Part shown: positions 28,134-38,661 of the stretch, in pieces
Layout: every line of letters starts with the position of its first letter
Position numbering within the stretch: position 1 is the stretch's first letter
From: a virus
Lineage: Duplodnaviria > Heunggongvirae > Uroviricota > Caudoviricetes
Length of the DNA: 38,661 bases
Reading direction: 5' to 3' (one strand)
Virus record (IMG/VR): IMGVR_UViG_2684623189_000006
The notes under the pieces: generated by a model
Seen by the model: only the letters and a program-made list of their open reading frames with translations
Told to the model about the DNA's origin: nothing
The model's database searches: none
Made by a program: the position numbers and the translations under genes

Positions 28134-28688
28134 TTATTTTTTATTTAAATTCATATAGATGTGAGAAACCTGTGCGATCTGAAATAAAACATCATCGAAT
28201 GCTGTGTGCCTAATGCCAGTGAAATTTTTATCAGCATGAGAAAAAATTCCTTTGCTTTCACCAAGTGCTAAGATGGTTCTAACGTCAAGAGTATCTCTGA
28301 ATGACCATGGGCAATCCAGACCCGCCTGTAACAGGGCATGATGCATGATCGTGCAGTCAAACTCTTTCCCGTTTCCCCACACTTTTACTCGGCCAGTACG
28401 ATTATGAAGAATAAATGCCACAAATTCATTCAGAACCTCTAAAAGGTCCTTAGTGCCATCAAAATTTTCGTTTTTAGCTTCAGTACTTTGATTCATCCAC
28501 CACTTTACAGTAGAGGGGGCAATGGTTCTGCCTGCTTGTTCATGATCAAGCGAAATAACTTGATAGAAACCCGGACCAATCTCGCCAGTCTCCGGCACGA
28601 AAAAAGCCGCACCAACTGAAAGGATATAAGCTGTTTTTTCAACATCCAATGTTTCTATATCTAACATTACATGATTCATAAGAAGCAA
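28134..28688 (-). CDS. DEDDh-type 3'-5' exonuclease (DnaQ-like fold), first gene of cargo operon
   Basis: N-terminal MLDIETLD (Exo I motif) and C-terminal HTAFDDV (H-x4-D, Exo III motif). The start is uncertain: TTG at 28688 or ATG at 28679. Confidence 0.6.
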   Translation of the reverse strand: MLLMNHVMLDIETLDVEKTAYILSVGAAFFVPETGEIGPGFYQVISLDHEQAGRTIAPSTVKWWMNQSTEAKNENFDGTKDLLEVLNEFVAFILHNRTGRVKVWGNGKEFDCTIMHHALLQAGLDCPWSFRDTLDVRTILALGESKGIFSHADKNFTGIRHTAFDDVLFQIAQVSHIYMNLNKK

Positions 28689-28852: not shown

Positions 28853-29023
28853 CTAGTGGTTGTATTCATGAGCGCGAATTCTCGCCATCAGCTCATCAGT
28901 CAACTCAGAAACCCACTGCAGAGCCAGCCCCTTCTCTTCATCACTACACTCACTAGCCGCTACAAGCTTAAGAAAAAAATCAATGCGCTGGAGCTTCAAA
29001 GACTCCAAAAAATAGTCCTGCAT
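28853..29023 (-). CDS. Small SOS-regulated protein (56 aa; not in the supplied ORF track), possible Tum-like antirepressor
   Basis: ATG at 29023 preceded by an AGGAGGAAAG Shine-Dalgarno. It translates to MQDYFLESLKLQRIDFFLKLVAASECSDEEKGLALQWVSELTDELMARIRAHEYNH. A perfect LexA box lies about 45 bp upstream. Confidence 0.45.
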   Translation of the reverse strand: MQDYFLESLKLQRIDFFLKLVAASECSDEEKGLALQWVSELTDELMARIRAHEYNH

Positions 29024-29065
29024 CTTTCCTCCTATGACACCACAAGCAATACTGTATGCACAACC

Positions 29066-29085
29066 ACTGTTTATATTTACAGTAT
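29066..29085. promoter_or_regulatory. LexA (SOS) box
   Basis: aCTGTttatatttACAGta matches CTGT-N8-ACAG exactly and is AT-rich inside. It sits in the A-distal intergenic region upstream of the small minus-strand ORF. Confidence 0.6.
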
Positions 29086-29175: not shown

Positions 29176-31590
29176 TTAATACAGGTTCCGCCACTTATCA
29201 TCTTCCTGCAAACGCTGGTTCCGATAGAAGATACGCAGGCCTGCTCCTGACGGAATACTGCCACCGCGAAGGAGTAAATCGACCTCTTTCTCGCTGCCAT
29301 CAAATCCTCTTGACTTCAGTTCATAGACGAGCTGCTGACGCTGATACTCTGTAATTCGCTGTTTGTAGTCTTTACGCCGTTTCGGTTTCACCAGGCGTAA
29401 TCTTGCTGCCAGTTCCTGGCGCTCTTTTTTGCTCATACTATGCAGGTAATCGTGCAACTCCTTGTCATCCATACAGGTAATGTCAGTTCTGGTATCCCCA
29501 TCTGTTGATTTATCTTTCTCCTGTTGGTTCAAATTTTCAGCAAGGGGACAGTTATTGCCACGAGTCCAAGGGGCGCAAGCGCCCTGGTCGGCTGCCGCCT
29601 CCTGAACGTCAACGGCCTTACGAACCATTTTCCACTTCACTGCATGAGTACAAATCTTGCCCTCTGCAATGGGTGACCAGATGCCATAAATACGAATACC
29701 GTGATCGCCATAGGCGGTCGGCTCTTCGTTAATTTCATAAGCTGTTCTGATAAGGTGATATTTGCGGGGAACCAGTACGCCGCCCTGCTTCATAATGTAG
29801 GTGGCAAAACAACCAGCATCAGCAGCAGCCAGGATTGCATCAAGGCGCGGGTTATCCAGTACCGGCGCACCTGCTTTTTTGTCCCCCTGTTGCCTTGCCG
29901 CCTGACCAGCCAGCAATCGCAGTTCACGGTAAGCCTGACGCCCCGGAATGCCAAAGAAGCGGAATTGCTGAACACGATGCAGAGACGCCCAAGCATTAAC
30001 GTATTCAGCATTATCACGCAGGGATTTCCCCGTTTCCTTGCTGATCTCGCCAGCCAGACCACGCCCGTCCATGTTCTTACTGATGTATTTCGCGATGTAG
30101 CTTGTTGGCGTACCTTTGCGCGGGTTAATCAACTCAGACTTAAAGCGCGGCCCAGTGTTATTGCCCAGCTCCTCGCGGTCTTCACGGATGGCAAACTTAC
30201 GCAGTAATGCAGTGATGGCGCGGCGGTCTTTTTTGCGCATAAAACACAACAGGTGCCAGTGAACTGTACCGTCATGATGCGGCTCAGCCACCCGCACGCC
30301 ATACCAGCGCAATCCGGCTTTGTGCATCGCCTTACGAAATGCAGCAAACATGCCGACCAGATAATCACTACTTTGTCTTACCGTCGCATTTGTCCAGGTT
30401 GGGTTGGGCCTGCCGTTATTTAGCGTGGAATGGAAACGTGACGGACAGGTGATGGTGTAGAAAACGGCGCAGTCACCGCGCATTTCCGCGATAAGCTCCA
30501 GGCCTTTAACACAGGCCATCATCTCATTGCGGCGATGCGCAGGGTTGCTGCTGCTGGCGTTTACCACATCCTCCATGTCCAGCGTGTCGCCGTCTTCGTT
30601 CACCAGTTCATGAGAACGAAAAAACTCCAGCGACTTACGGCGCTGCTCACGTTTATGCATCACGGCTTCATAGCTGACATAGGGAGATGCTTTTTTGCTG
30701 ACCAGGCAAACAGCACGCAACTGCTCTTCCCGCCATTCGCAACGCATCTTCCATAATTTCCGGTACCACCAGTCGGCGCACAACATACGCGCCAGCGAAC
30801 CCGGAATGAGTTCATAGGGCACGGGTTTACGGCGGTTTCTTTTCCGGCGGAGTTGATCAAACGCAGGCGGGATGACATCCAGACGCAGGGTTTCCGCTGC
30901 CACCTTTTCCCATGTCTTGCGGATTTCTTCTGGCTTAACGTCATCGGTGACATACAAATCGCCACAAGCTGCATCAAGGCACATGCTCATATGCGCAGCG
31001 ACAAGGGTAGACAAGCGTTTCACCTGATCCTGACTCATTTCAGGCAGGATCAGCAGGCCGTCCAGCCCTTCATGGCTTGCCATAAAGCGAAAAGAAGTGG
31101 ATAGCTGACTGTCGCGTACATGCTCCAGTCGTTCCAGACATGGCTTAATCGTCTCACGCAAATAGCGGGAATAAGCCTTTGGCCTGCCTAGGCTGCTGAA
31201 GTATTCAATACGTTGCAACAGCGGCTTGCTGATATGGGAAGGCTGGGCATTGACGTCCGCCAGAATGACCATATCTGGATTAAAACGCTGCTGCTCATGC
31301 GCCAGCTTTGCCCGGCTAATGAGCTTATCCTGCTCCATTTCGCGTTGGACAGGATCACGGGATTCATTAAAGAAATAACGCTCCCAGACCTGATCACTCA
31401 GTGCCTCGCGGCGCAGTTGTTCCTGCTCGTTATCGGCAGCGTACAGAGTGATCAGGTTTGAAAGCGCAGAAACCGGCGCAACTTCCGCCGGGTCCAGATA
31501 AGGGTTAATAGCCTTTTTCGGGCTGTTCCATGAGAATGCTGCGGCGGCCTCGTTAAAGCCGCTGCAGTTGTTCATATCAGCATGGCTCAT
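29176..31590 (-). CDS. A: Replication initiation protein A (rolling-circle nickase)
   Basis: An 804-aa ORF; P2/186 gpA-like sequence and position. Confidence 0.85.
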
Positions 31591-34029: not shown

Positions 34030-34557
34030 TCACAGCAAACCGAATGAAGCACCGAGGCCAGTCACGGTATCAACTGCACTCGCCATCGCAGGATTAGCCT
34101 GTAAACGGGCCTGCAATGAAACAGCCGCCAGCGCCATCAGTCGTGTTACAGAATTAATGCTGCTGATGGCATCACGACGACCGGCACTGGTTTTTACATC
34201 GCCAGATACCGCACCTGCAGCAACACGCCCGATCTCTGCGGTTGCACTCATGACGTAATGTGGCAGTTTCTCTTTTGCCACCTCATTAATCGGTACACAT
34301 GGCAGACAATGAATCTGTGCCAGAAAACCATCTACCAGCGTTGAATCTTCAGTCAGATCGGTAAGCAGCCAGATTTCTGGTGCGGTTAATAAATGAGGTT
34401 GAGCTGGGTTCAGCTTGTTCCGCAGAATCTGCACATTCATGCCAGCACGTTCTGCCAGTTGCACCAGGTTGTGGCGCAATGCGAATGCACGACAGGCTTC
34501 ATCAAAATGTGGATGTTTGGAAACTTGGTAATCAAACATATTCGACATCTCTGACAT
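34030..34557 (-). CDS. cII: CII-like lysogeny establishment activator
   Basis: Matches coliphage 186 CII as I recall it ([23 protein letters not shown]...[28 protein letters not shown]...). The start may be the internal ATG at 34539. Confidence 0.8.
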
Positions 34558-34571
34558 AACCCAAAATGGAA

Positions 34572-34793
34572 CTAGTTAATGCTCAAATTGCATTCAGCGA
34601 GTGCATCAACAGTCATTGCTGCGATATTGATCATCACCTTTTCTCGCTTTTTATCCTTACGGAGACGATGGCGAATAAGACGTCCATCAGCCAGCATGTC
34701 ATTGATGGTGTCGATAGATAAGCCAGTCAGTTCGCTGTATTTCTCAATAGAAACAGATGGAACAGCTAAGGTGATTGAAATATGTGGAGTCAT
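34572..34793 (-). CDS. apl: Apl/Cox-like excisionase and switch regulator
   Basis: A 73-aa HTH protein (EKYSELTGLSIDTINDMLADG). Its ATG at 34793 has a GAGGA Shine-Dalgarno, and it is the first gene of the rightward operon, divergent from cI. Confidence 0.7.
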   Translation of the reverse strand: MTPHISITLAVPSVSIEKYSELTGLSIDTINDMLADGRLIRHRLRKDKKREKVMINIAAMTVDALAECNLSIN

Positions 34794-34918
34794 GATGCAA
34801 GATTCCTCGATTAACATGATGCGTGGTAACTGGTGATTAACACCGTCAAGTTCACTTTCTCACACATTAATTCTTCATTTGAGAAGTGTCAACTCAATAT
34901 TACTCAAAGGCGTACTAG

Positions 34919-35797
34919 ATGAATTTCAAAAACGGAGGACAGGCAGTCATAACGCGCATGCTTGAAGCGTATGGATTCAAGACGCGGCAAGCCCTATGTG
35001 AACAGTTCAATGTATCTGCAAGTACTATGGGAACGCGCTGGATGCGTGACGCATTTCCTGCTGACTGGGTAATTCAGTGTGCAATTGAAACAGGAGCATC
35101 TATAGAGTGGCTCTCATTCGGAAAAGGCGTGCCATTTCCTAAGAATACCGAAGTTCCCGCTAAATTAGAGGAACCAGCATCATTGGTTCAATATGTTCCC
35201 AAAGCCACCACCAACGAGAACCCAATTGTGAACCATCCAAATCTGGATTCAGGTGGACGTAATGCGATAAACAGGCTAATGGAAGCGTATGGCTTTAAAA
35301 CAAGACAAGAACTTGCCGACCATTTGAATGTGTCTAAAAGCACAATGGCGAATAGATACTTGCGAGACACATTCCCAGCTGACTGGATCATAAGATGCTC
35401 GTTGGAAACAAGAACTTCTCTTTTATGGTTAGCAACTGGGCGCGGGCAAAAACTTGGAAGCGAAGAAAGTGAAGCTTTAGAAATTCCTAAAGTAAAACTT
35501 ATTGACAATCAAATTTTCGATGCTGGTCATTTATTGATAGATAAGTCCCTGCTTCCTCATTTTAATGATTTACTCGCAATTGAAGACGAACATTGCATAA
35601 ATATTGCACACATGAATAAAGCTAATGTTGAAGACGGAAGATGGATTGTTCAATACCAAAATAATTTCAAGTTAAAACAAATTTTTCTATTACCTGGAGG
35701 CAATCTTCGAGTAACAGACGATGATTTAACATTTGATTGTGAAAAAGAAGATATAAAATTAGTTGCCAAAATTTTCTCACAGTACCGTACTATTTAA
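34919..35797 (+). CDS. cI: CI-type immunity repressor (186 CI family) with tandemly duplicated N-terminal DNA-binding domain
   Basis: Two about 60-aa repeats (MLEAYGFKTRQ...ETGASIEWLSFGKG and LMEAYGFKTRQ...ETRTSLLWLATGRG) followed by a 186-CI-like C-terminal domain. Confidence 0.75.
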   Translation: MNFKNGGQAVITRMLEAYGFKTRQALCEQFNVSASTMGTRWMRDAFPADWVIQCAIETGASIEWLSFGKGVPFPKNTEVPAKLEEPASLVQYVPKATTNENPIVNHPNLDSGGRNAINRLMEAYGFKTRQELADHLNVSKSTMANRYLRDTFPADWIIRCSLETRTSLLWLATGRGQKLGSEESEALEIPKVKLIDNQIFDAGHLLIDKSLLPHFNDLLAIEDEHCINIAHMNKANVEDGRWIVQYQNNFKLKQIFLLPGGNLRVTDDDLTFDCEKEDIKLVAKIFSQYRTI

Positions 35798-35812: not shown

Positions 35813-36841
35813 ATGGATTTTATAAAAAAACTCGAATTTGGAAATTATACTCTCCGTTTTGGTGATGATGTTTTGCTAGACTATTATGATGAAATTGTTT
35901 TCCCCTCTTTTTTGGAGATGGCAAACATCCGCAGAATATCTGACAAATCAGAGTTCTTTTTCATTGATACTGAATGCGTCATACTTGACGAAGAAGCAAC
36001 ACCCCCAGTACTCGGAATTAAAGGTCGGATTATTAAGAATACATTATTAACCAGAGAACAAGTATTTGATGGTGCTGATTTGGTTGAAGATCATCAAGAG
36101 CTTGAAACAGCCCCGAGCTCTTTCTTTCTTCTAATATTAAACACTCACAGATTAATTCTTTGCAAGGAAGTTAGTGGTGCTCCCACAATTCAAAACTTTC
36201 AGTCAACAAGTCAGTGTTTCTTAAACATAGAATATGAAAAATACATATCTCATTTATACGAAACCGCACAAGAAGAACGCAAAGAAAACCCTGACTTACC
36301 TCGAGTCACTAAAAAAAGCTTACGGAACGAAATCAAACGCCCGAAGCTAAGAATAACGCCGTTAACTGACAAACAAAGCCTAGAGCAATTTATTGATAAT
36401 TTTAATAAAATCCAAAATGTCTCAGTAAAACTTCTCCCTACAAATCAAGAAGAAATTGATAACGACGAATTTTGGGAGTCACTTGAAAGTGCCGGAGACG
36501 AAATGGGAAGTATTTCTACATCTATTCGCTTTTCAAACACCGATTCAGGCTTGAATCATGGTGCTGTTTTAGAACAACTCACATCAGCAACCAGATTGGC
36601 TAATTCAGGAATAAATATTAAAGGATATGATGACAATGGTGATATAATCAAAGGTAGCAATGATGACTTTGTTTTGTTAAGTGAGATGAATGAATTATCA
36701 AAGGATACGGTAGTAGCTGCAAATGAAAGTTATGAGCGGTATGAAAATCTTGTAGAAGAAGGTAAGATATCTCTACCCCGTTCTCTTTCACAAAAGACGA
36801 TTAGAATTATTAGCAATATATATGAAAGGTTTGGTCGATGA
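35813..36841 (+). CDS. Hypothetical protein (342 aa), AT-rich cargo gene 1 between cI and int
   Basis: Low-GC ORF with a GAGG Shine-Dalgarno and no recognisable family. Its stop overlaps the next start (ATGA). Confidence 0.6.
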   Translation: MDFIKKLEFGNYTLRFGDDVLLDYYDEIVFPSFLEMANIRRISDKSEFFFIDTECVILDEEATPPVLGIKGRIIKNTLLTREQVFDGADLVEDHQELETAPSSFFLLILNTHRLILCKEVSGAPTIQNFQSTSQCFLNIEYEKYISHLYETAQEERKENPDLPRVTKKSLRNEIKRPKLRITPLTDKQSLEQFIDNFNKIQNVSVKLLPTNQEEIDNDEFWESLESAGDEMGSISTSIRFSNTDSGLNHGAVLEQLTSATRLANSGINIKGYDDNGDIIKGSNDDFVLLSEMNELSKDTVVAANESYERYENLVEEGKISLPRSLSQKTIRIISNIYERFGR

Positions 36842-37518
36842 TAAATAAAATAGATGCTAAAGAAATAACCAAAGAGAAAAACCTTTGGGATGTTTACTTG
36901 CTCTGCAAACGGATTACTATTAGTACATTCCATATTTGTATTTTGCTCACAGCATCTATTTTTTTATTAACAAACTCTTTTTTTATTGAGAAGGATATGT
37001 CTCATTTAGTATCTGACATTAGAAACTGGGCTTTGATTGGTTTTAACTTTGCAGTGACAACCTTAGGTTTTCTCATTGCTGGTTTCACAATATTTGCAAC
37101 ACTATCCAAACCCGAGATGTTTCTTCAGATGATGTCAATACAACATAAAAAAACACAGATGCCCACGTTAAAATATAACTTTATGGCATTTATGAAAGTT
37201 TTCATCTCATTTATTACGTTTACTTTCATTTATCTAATAATAATTCTCTTTTGTCAAAAAGATGGAATAATTGGCAATATAATTGATTTATTTCCATATT
37301 CAAAATCGATAAAAGAATTAATTATTAAATTTGGATACTGTGTTATAGGGACTAGCCTTATTTACTTAGTGTTAGTAGTAAAGACATTTATTTTTAATAT
37401 CTACGCTATCATAATGAATAATATTCGTTGGGAGTTATACATTAAAAGAAAAGAACAAAGACTTTCCAGTAACAAAGAGACAATCAATAAAAACATAGAT
37501 GTAACTAAAATGCATTAA
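36838..37518 (+). CDS. Hypothetical integral membrane protein (226 aa, about 4 TM helices), AT-rich cargo gene 2
   Basis: Four long hydrophobic segments; translationally coupled to the upstream gene. Confidence 0.6.
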   Translation: MINKIDAKEITKEKNLWDVYLLCKRITISTFHICILLTASIFLLTNSFFIEKDMSHLVSDIRNWALIGFNFAVTTLGFLIAGFTIFATLSKPEMFLQMMSIQHKKTQMPTLKYNFMAFMKVFISFITFTFIYLIIILFCQKDGIIGNIIDLFPYSKSIKELIIKFGYCVIGTSLIYLVLVVKTFIFNIYAIIMNNIRWELYIKRKEQRLSSNKETINKNIDVTKMH

Positions 37519-37555
37519 ACACATAACATATGTATAGTTATCCAATCATCATACA

Positions 37556-37583
37556 TTGACACTGTATAAAAAAACAGTATAAA
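37556..37583 (+). promoter_or_regulatory. Sigma70-like promoter with embedded LexA box upstream of int
   Basis: TTGACA (37556-37561), a 16-nt spacer and TATAAA (37578-37583). The spacer contains CTGTataaaaaaACAG (CTGT-N8-ACAG). Confidence 0.5.
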
Positions 37584-37608
37584 TGCTCTCCACTGGAGGG
37601 CATTTTTT

Positions 37609-38661
37609 ATGGCAGTACGAAAACTCACCACAGGGAAATGGCTTTGCGAATGTTACCCCGCCGGACGAAGTGGGCGTCGTGTGCGTAAACAATTCGCCAC
37701 CAAAGGCGAAGCTCTGGCTTTTGAGCGTCACACGATGGAAGAAACCGAATCAAAGCCCTGGCTGGGCGAATCAGTGGATCGTCGAACCCTGAAAGACGTG
37801 GTTGAGCTATGGTTCAAATTACATGGTAAATCTCTGACTGCTGGACAGCATGTCTATGACAAATTGCTGCTGATGGTTGACGCTCTAGGCAATCCTCTTG
37901 CAACCAATCTCACCTCTAAAATGTTTGCCCACTATCGAGATAAACGCCTGACAGGTGAGATCTACTTCAGCGAGAAATGGAAGAAAGGAGCCAGCCCGGT
38001 CACCATTAACCTGGAGCAAAGCTATCTAAGTAGTGTTTTTAGCGAACTATCCCGCCTGGGCGAATGGTCGTATCCAAACCCACTGGAGAACATGCGAAAA
38101 TTCACCATCGCAGAAAAAGAGATGGCATGGCTTACCCATGAGCAGATTGTTGAACTGCTGGCTGATTGCAAACGTCAGGACCCAATTCTGGCACTGGTAG
38201 TCAAGATATGCTTAAGCACAGGCGCACGCTGGCGAGAAGCAATAAATCTTACCCGATCACAGGTGACTAAATACCGAATTACCTTTGTAAGAACGAAGGG
38301 GAAGAAAAACAGAAGCATCCCTATCAGTAAAGAGCTTTATGAAGAGATCATGGCGCTTGATGGGTTCAATTTCTTCACAGACTGCTATTTTCAATTTTTA
38401 TCCGTGATGGAAAAAACGTCTATCGTGCTCCCTCGCGGTCAACTCACACACGTTCTGCGCCATACGTTTGCGGCGCACTTCATGATGTCGGGTGGAAACA
38501 TTCTGGCCTTACAAAAAATTCTCGGACACCACGATATAAAAATGACTATGCGTTACGCACATCTGGCACCGGATCATCTAGAAACGGCGCTCCGTTTCAA
38601 TCCTCTGGCAACGCTGCCAAGTGGCGACAAAGTGGCGGCAGCGGTTGGCATTACCCCGTAA
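37609..38661 (+). CDS. int: Tyrosine recombinase / integrase (P2/186 family)
   Basis: A 350-aa ORF with the C-terminal catalytic region ...LSTGARWREA...HVLRHTFAAHFMMSGG...LGHHDIKMTMRYAHL (R...HxxR...Y) and a GGAGGG Shine-Dalgarno. Confidence 0.9.
   Translation: MAVRKLTTGKWLCECYPAGRSGRRVRKQFATKGEALAFERHTMEETESKPWLGESVDRRTLKDVVELWFKLHGKSLTAGQHVYDKLLLMVDALGNPLATNLTSKMFAHYRDKRLTGEIYFSEKWKKGASPVTINLEQSYLSSVFSELSRLGEWSYPNPLENMRKFTIAEKEMAWLTHEQIVELLADCKRQDPILALVVKICLSTGARWREAINLTRSQVTKYRITFVRTKGKKNRSIPISKELYEEIMALDGFNFFTDCYFQFLSVMEKTSIVLPRGQLTHVLRHTFAAHFMMSGGNILALQKILGHHDIKMTMRYAHLAPDHLETALRFNPLATLPSGDKVAAAVGITP

Follow-up and report, generated by a model that had tools for sequence, protein, structure and literature searches.

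A conserved module combining a LexA box, a CII-type inverted repeat and a leader hairpin precedes P2/186-type integrase genes in prophages of Enterobacterales

Control of the integrase gene is textbook knowledge in the case of phage lambda, where it involves promoter pI and sib, and is presumed to be of the operon type in P2/186 phages. The lambda CII site consists of TTGC repeats, and the Int needed for excision comes from pL with retroregulation by sib. Outside phages, LexA repression of the integron integrase, tying recombination to the SOS response, was reportedly described by Guerin et al. in 2009. The role of lambda CII as the activator of lysogeny establishment has been summarised (PMC7708051). 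In phage 186, CII binds at pE an inverted repeat whose half-sites are centred at -38 and -58, with two helical turns between them (PMC6593788), and the integron intI promoter is described as LexA-repressed, coupling recombination to SOS (PMC3375312). In the searchable literature, whose coverage is incomplete so that an earlier report is possible, no LexA- or CII-controlled int promoter was found for P2/186-like phages.

The window, i.e. the whole stretch of 38,661 nucleotides that was analysed, is a 186-like (P2-family) prophage. The genes and sites needed for its comparison with the above systems are the following:

29065-29084 and 29050-29069, no strand assigned: further LexA sites of the prophage (23.6 and 12.6 bits, respectively, with the E. 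coli LexA matrix)
29176-31590, minus strand: gene A
34030-34557, minus strand: cII, encoding the candidate activator of the int promoter (Pfam Phage_CP76, PF06892, 3.6e-42)
34513-34539, plus strand: the prophage's own pE-type CII site, ATGTTTG-N13-CAAACAT, inside the 5' end of cII (half-sites and 13-bp spacing identical to the annotated 186 site)
34572-34817, minus strand: Cox/Apl-like gene
34919-35797, plus strand: cI, with two Phage_CI_repr HTH stretches
35813-37518, plus strand: two cargo ORFs of low GC content
37609-38661, plus strand: int, encoding a P2/186-family tyrosine integrase of 350 aa (Pfam Int_N, 2.3e-32; Phage_integrase, 6.9e-22)

All genes from cI through int are co-oriented. 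The RefSeq label of int is 'phage integrase', adjoining rcdA, and identical DNA in complete E. coli genomes also adjoins rcdA, cI being followed there by the cargo, then int and then the chromosome. The cI product has 292 aa in the window, as against 192 aa in 186 and 286 aa in PSP3, and its two Phage_CI_repr HTH stretches indicate a duplicated N-terminal domain. The cargo ORFs code for 342 and 226 aa, the second product displaying about four hydrophobic segments; their GC content is 26-37%, versus 43-53% in the flanks, and neither had a match in Pfam, PADLOC or PHROG. Past the prophage's own pE-type site, within 34540-34575, the hexamer standing where the spacing of 186 would put it is CCAAAA (CAAAAT if shifted downstream by one base), and the region aligned with the -35 reads TATTCG; both would fit an activator-dependent pE directed towards cI.

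The LexA sites at 29050-29084 lie 3' of gene A and 5' of a 56-aa ORF (28853-29023, minus strand) and, in comparison with the 186 record, occupy the position of the 186 p95/tum SOS operon. The ORF under this second LexA site corresponds to phrog_698, of unknown function, and was rejected as a Tum homologue, as its product has no similarity to 186 Tum or PSP3 TumA; it is a candidate for an antirepressor unrelated to these proteins. A gene for an Rv2179c-like 3'-5' exonuclease (28134-28688, minus strand) is located farther downstream of this ORF.

Immediately upstream of int, a module of about 80 bp (37530-37608) was delimited. It would give int its own transcription unit, and is neither a chance match nor a recent repair. 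Its parts are:

37530-37536, plus strand: left half-site ATGTATA, predicted at about -58 (pattern rarity, match to the 186 CII site)
37550-37556, plus strand: right half-site CATACAT, predicted at about -38 (spacing, conservation)
37556-37561, plus strand: -35 hexamer TTGACA, 6/6 (direct reading)
37560-37579, no strand assigned: putative LexA operator CACTGTATAAAAAAACAGTA, a 20-bp box that takes up the promoter spacer, at about -31 to -12 (matrix score, conservation)
37562-37577: LexA core CTGT-N8-ACAG, CTGTATAAAAAAACAG, with an AT-rich centre, equal to the 16-bp spacer (direct reading)
37578-37583, plus strand: -10 hexamer TATAAA, 5/6, without the final T (direct reading)
37590-37591, plus strand: predicted transcription start
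37585-37608, plus strand: hairpin GCUCUCC-ACU-GGAGGGC, then T6 (folding energy, shuffle z-scores)

The original prediction made on this DNA had proposed that a LexA box overlaps a promoter dedicated to int, and every element on which it was based, namely TTGACA, TATAAA and the spacer with CTGT-N8-ACAG, was located by direct reading where it had been claimed. The ATG of int, at 37609, lies 25 nt past the -10, and an alternative -10, ATAAAT, can be read one base downstream of TATAAA. The transcription start was predicted either as the end of the -10 plus 7 (37590) or from the geometry of 186 pE, whose annotated end is 35 nt past the right half-site and which, if applied at int, points to 37591. 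A promoter scan of the window did not call the int promoter because TATAAA lacks the conserved final T. In relatives, the hexamer aligned with the -10 is usually TTAAAT, TAAAAT or TAAATT, starting at the T of CAGT, and the -35 position reads TTGACC, TTGACA, TTTACA or TTGAAT. The scan calls the same promoter in these relatives, as TTGACC-18-TAAATT in locus L006 and as TTTACA-16-TAAAAT in locus L034, and there, too, the LexA box overlaps the core promoter elements.

The bare CTGT-N8-ACAG pattern has 2 matches in the window for 0.52 expected, and at least two matches were obtained in 10 of 100 shuffles; it is weak evidence alone, whereas the full 20-mer CACTGTATAAAAAAACAGTA is strong evidence. 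The latter was scored, as the original prediction had suggested, with a LexA weight matrix, here a symmetrised one based on 27 classical E. coli SOS boxes as known from published compilations. It reached 23.4 bits, as compared with 12.8-26.8 bits (median 19.9) for known E. coli sites and with a background maximum of 7.9 bits over the window, leaving aside the sites at 29065 and 29050. The LexA operator at int is, on these grounds and on those of its conservation, very probably functional.

Conservation was evaluated on an int-anchored sample of 77 loci with relatives of Int (48-99% identity), containing one genome per species and established regardless of the presence of the motif; 73 of these loci and the window formed the usable set of 74. 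In 41 of the 74, a LexA box scoring 15 bits or more was found at -47 to -54 from the int ATG, and the same layout was kept down to 53% Int identity. LexA scores over the int loci were bimodal, with none between 7.1 and 15.3 bits. Positive loci were scattered over the Enterobacterales, including Escherichia, Enterobacter, Klebsiella, Raoultella, Citrobacter, Kluyvera, Serratia, Yersinia, Pectobacterium, Rahnella, Pantoea, Brenneria, Mixta and others. Within the 41 boxes, CTG and CAG were invariant and the centre was free; the resulting conservation profile correlated with the LexA information profile (Spearman 0.78), an agreement that is partly circular since the LexA-positive set was defined by the same matrix. 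The fixed offset in 41 of 74 loci, this LexA-like profile and the hairpin located before the ATG all argue for the proposal that a LexA-operated promoter belonging to int drives its expression without recourse to the cI transcript.

A motif-first scan of viral contigs with the composite pattern retrieved at least 120 contigs. Among the matches listed, a homologue of Int (44-100% identity) starts at most 120 nt downstream in 117 of 120 contigs and the remaining three end before the next gene, there being no counter-example among these matches. At the level of complete E. coli genomes, a 98-nt module query matched 792 of 5,426 (about 15%), including BLR(DE3) and BL21 Star(DE3), and 1,106 E. coli genomes had a match to a 381-nt query across the site. 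The copy of BLR(DE3), also present in BL21 Star(DE3), comprises the full int promoter module with the LexA box CACTGGTTATACATACAGTA (L324, 3983-4063); the prophage concerned is the defective P2/186-like prophage of E. coli B laboratory strains, in which cII and gene A are truncated and cI and int are intact.

The promoter is preceded by an inverted repeat, ATGTATA-N13-CATACAT, which abuts the -35 in such a way that the last T of CATACAT is the first base of TTGACA. The pattern ATGTWTN-N11-17-NAWACAT has two occurrences in the window for 0.11 expected, the second copy being located at pE, inside cII. In comparison with the 186 half-sites ATGTTTG and CAAACAT, those at int differ at two and one of seven positions, respectively. 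Their centres, 37533 and 37553, are 20 bp apart, and their placement at -58 and -38 depends on the predicted start site. When both promoters were compared in an ungapped register derived from coordinates, the distance from the right half-site to the -10 was 21 nt at the int promoter (TATAAA) as well as at 186 pE (TAAAGT). Over the 77 loci, the repeat pattern was almost confined to two places: one is inside the start of cII, where the pE position is occupied in nearly all loci with cII, and the other, in LexA-positive loci, lies some 80 bp ahead of int. A right half-site abutted the -35 in all 41 LexA-positive loci (NAWACAT in 39, ACGT in two); the left half-site was a strict match in 24 of the 41, most of the others being one-base variants. 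Taken as a whole, this distribution and geometry make it reasonably probable that the CII site at int is functional.

The core promoter at int differs from the weak, activator-dependent core of the pE class, since its -35 is a consensus and only its -10 is imperfect. Owing to this consensus -35, unlike the situation at the activator-dependent pE, CII may be dispensable. Furthermore, the LexA box starts 3 bp past the right half-site, so that LexA and CII might interfere with each other and a LexA dimer might exclude CII; if repression by LexA were full, CII would then be unable to supply Int in undamaged cells. It is in this context that LexA could be seen as the sole regulator of the promoter, the upstream repeat being either not a CII site or functionless, and the Int required for integration stemming from basal or leaky expression. 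A core promoter with TTGACA is plausibly activator-independent, LexA is the best supported of the three module parts, and the left half-site is degenerate in 17 of the 41 loci. However, the repeat agrees with the CII site defined by experiment in 186 as to its sequence, its spacing and its position, its right half-site is kept in 41 of 41 loci though the flanks diverge, and the repeat pattern is, elsewhere in the loci, almost confined to pE. Regulation by LexA alone is consequently regarded as unlikely.

A second CII-like repeat, ATGTATG-N13-CATACAA, was observed in Rahnella prophages (L034, 3576-3602; also L025, L026, L028, L030 and L031). It is located about 40 bp 5' of the late activator gene ogr, between ogr and a divergent glyoxalase-like gene, and pE geometry applied to it places a start almost at the ogr ATG. 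Such a repeat lies in an odd place for a lysogeny activator, and might be taken to mean that the repeat at int is bound by a protein other than CII, be it Int, Apl/Cox, CI or a host factor, which autoregulates int; CII binding at int is itself a prediction, and no cII is visible in ogr-adjacent phages within the short stretches compared. This possibility is nevertheless very improbable: the 186 Int arm consensus (YAYCGCCAYTY) and the Apl and CI sites are annotated at other positions in the 186 record, whereas the repeat at int equals the annotated CII site, and its sole other copy in the window is at pE. Probable recognition of the repeat by CII, in addition to that of the box by LexA, is the reading retained below.

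The leader of int is occupied by a hairpin with a core at 37585-37601 (7-bp stem, 3-nt loop), an extended stem of 11 bp at 37581-37605 and a T6 run at 37603-37608. Its 3' arm includes the Shine-Dalgarno sequence (SD) GGAGG (37595-37599). A folding energy of -14.4 kcal/mol (z = -5.0) was obtained for the 29-nt leader (37580-37608) and one of -15.6 for the segment 37584-37640, as against -5.6 for a transcript that begins at 37591 and no longer has the hairpin. Leader z-scores were based on per-sequence dinucleotide shuffles, with the LexA-negative leaders as control set. Among 35 distinct LexA-positive leaders, the mean z was -3.7, with 29 of the 35 below -2, and the median ΔG was -12.4, versus a mean z of -0.2 and a median ΔG of -2.2 for 30 LexA-negative leaders. 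The LexA-positive leaders displayed at least 10 different stem sequences, always with a purine-rich SD in the 3' arm, and strong folding by so many stem sequences means that it is the structure which is conserved, not the sequence. RNAalifold returned no pairs on a MAFFT alignment of the leaders, in which the stems, being of variable length, are out of register. Rfam gave only sub-threshold matches (Phe_leader at 25.5 bits for a gathering score of 55, and others), which were taken as chance.

In the commonest variant (L006), a canonical terminator starting 2 nt past the -10 is called by the scan. In the window, the hairpin was absent from the called terminators, presumably because the extended stem uses up part of the T-run. 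Rahnella-type hairpins have no T-run, yet their SD and start codon are still paired. With the predicted +1 located within the 5' arm, formation of the hairpin should be limited to read-through transcripts coming from upstream; the chances that it acts as an insulator against upstream transcription are, in our opinion, about even.

Homology between prophages with different cargo begins at 37528-37530, i.e. at the left half-site. Other E. coli prophages carry unrelated genes between cI and the int promoter, such as a trio with an ASCH-domain protein or a KAP/P-loop NTPase, among others; this slot is a hotspot for variable cargo and might house defence genes. A LexA box is never present where the end of cI lies 4-24 bp ahead of the int ATG, as in 186 and PSP3, and int is set apart from cI in all LexA-positive loci. 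As potential carriers of the module, 186, PSP3 and Yersinia phage vB_YenM_201.16 were discarded, their int being of the operon type with no room for it. Three loci (L246, L267 and L270) display the complete module only 22 bp past the cI stop, with no cargo. In at least about 22 viral contigs, plus a Rahnella/Pantoea group, the module is preceded by the late genes D and ogr as well as by a separate terminator, a position in which no cI operon could serve int. As judged from these arrangements, the module seems to travel with the int gene, and more likely permits a variable-cargo slot than arises from one. In one of the Rahnella loci (L034, 6658-6900), a copy of the last 57 or so int codons was observed 1.6 kb past the intact int, beyond an HNH-like gene, which suggests that the att site overlaps the int 3' end or that the copy is a remnant of an earlier integration.

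The original prediction had also considered that the promoter might restore int expression after a cargo insertion had separated int from cI. Such a repair finds no support in view of the age of the module (to 53% Int identity) and its constancy across cargos, as well as of the complete copies found without cargo, 22 bp past the cI stop, and next to ogr. What stands of that prediction, by comparative evidence, is the proposed LexA-operated promoter belonging to int itself; the CII-type site and the hairpin had been overlooked, and they change the model from SOS control only to two inputs with insulation from upstream transcription. Expression of int mainly by read-through from the cI/cargo (pL/pE) operon, with a LexA-box promoter that is weak, non-functional or a mere LexA roadblock, would agree with int expression from the cI operon in 186 and PSP3, with the shared orientation of the genes from cI to int and with a -10 devoid of its final T, but it is scarcely credible given the stable SD-sequestering hairpin and T-run directly before the int ATG, the canonical terminator formed by the hairpin of the commoner variant and the maintenance of the module where int follows ogr and a separate terminator, beyond any cI operon, and it leaves the conservation of the -35, box and -10 unexplained.

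The preferred reading is that of a dedicated, LexA-repressed int promoter module in which at least one of the two additional parts, CII site or hairpin, works as described; its probability, as estimated from sequence comparisons, is roughly 0.6. That the LexA, CII and hairpin parts all work together is possible, at somewhat less than even odds. In an undamaged lysogen, host LexA would fill the spacer of the sigma-70 promoter and int would be silent, and in a healthy lysogen cI/cargo transcripts would end at the hairpin or be blocked translationally. During the SOS response, cleavage of LexA would derepress int together with the LexA-controlled operon at 29050-29084, and Apl produced from pR would then direct excision. 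After infection, phage CII would probably boost the int promoter and thereby provide the Int that integration requires, in the way known of lambda CII and pI. Int would be made at the two moments of need, integration and excision, in a manner comparable to a lambda pI supplemented with an SOS operator, and transcripts from the int promoter itself would escape the hairpin.

In its complete form, which can only be put forward tentatively, this model supposes that a single promoter reads both CII, as a sign of a fresh infection heading to lysogeny, and LexA cleavage, as a sign of DNA damage, with Int made only at integration and excision. The hairpin over the start would block transcription from upstream, and this insulation would explain that the slot between cI and int can take arbitrary cargo, giving rise to a hotspot of cargo genes, probably defence genes. 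If true, the module would represent a third solution to int control beside those of lambda and of the operon type, namely one two-input promoter with a built-in read-through barrier, and prophage excision would be tied directly to LexA and not merely via an antirepressor. As BL21-type strains carry the module, a common production host would possess an SOS-inducible recombinase. Marking the fixed right-hand border of a variable-cargo slot, the module may also be an aid to mining prophages for accessory and defence genes, in a prophage family that has it in about 15% of E. coli genomes and in many other Enterobacterales.

Each part of the module is known from one of the systems 186 p95, 186 pE, lambda pI and integron intI, and it is their combination and their placement at a P2/186-type int that appear undescribed. 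Within the same phage group, p95 of the 186 tum SOS operon resembles the int promoter in having a single strong LexA box over the promoter core (TACTGTATGTTTATACAGTA in 186), but it controls an antirepressor and has neither CII half-sites nor an SD hairpin. The int gene of 186 itself has no LexA box because its ATG overlaps the cI stop. The 186 pE promoter shares with the int promoter a pair of inverted 7-bp half-sites (ATGTWTN/NAWACAT) spaced by 20 bp, and the 21 nt to the -10; unlike it, pE lacks a LexA operator, its -35 is poor, its location is within cII and its target is cI (plus int in 186), whereas the int promoter has a consensus -35 and ATGTATA/CATACAT instead of ATGTTTG/CAAACAT. The operon-type int genes of 186, PSP3 and P2 have the order cI-int-att and the integrase family in common with the present locus, but they abut the upstream gene (4-24 bp) and are devoid of promoter, box and hairpin. 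Lambda pI follows the same logic, being a dedicated int promoter under a lysogeny-establishment activator, with the difference that its CII protein and site are unrelated and that it has no LexA operator. Finally, integron intI, like int here, codes for a tyrosine recombinase and has a LexA box overlapping its promoter, but it belongs to another type of element and another recombinase clade, and has neither a phage activator site nor a promoter-embedded terminator.
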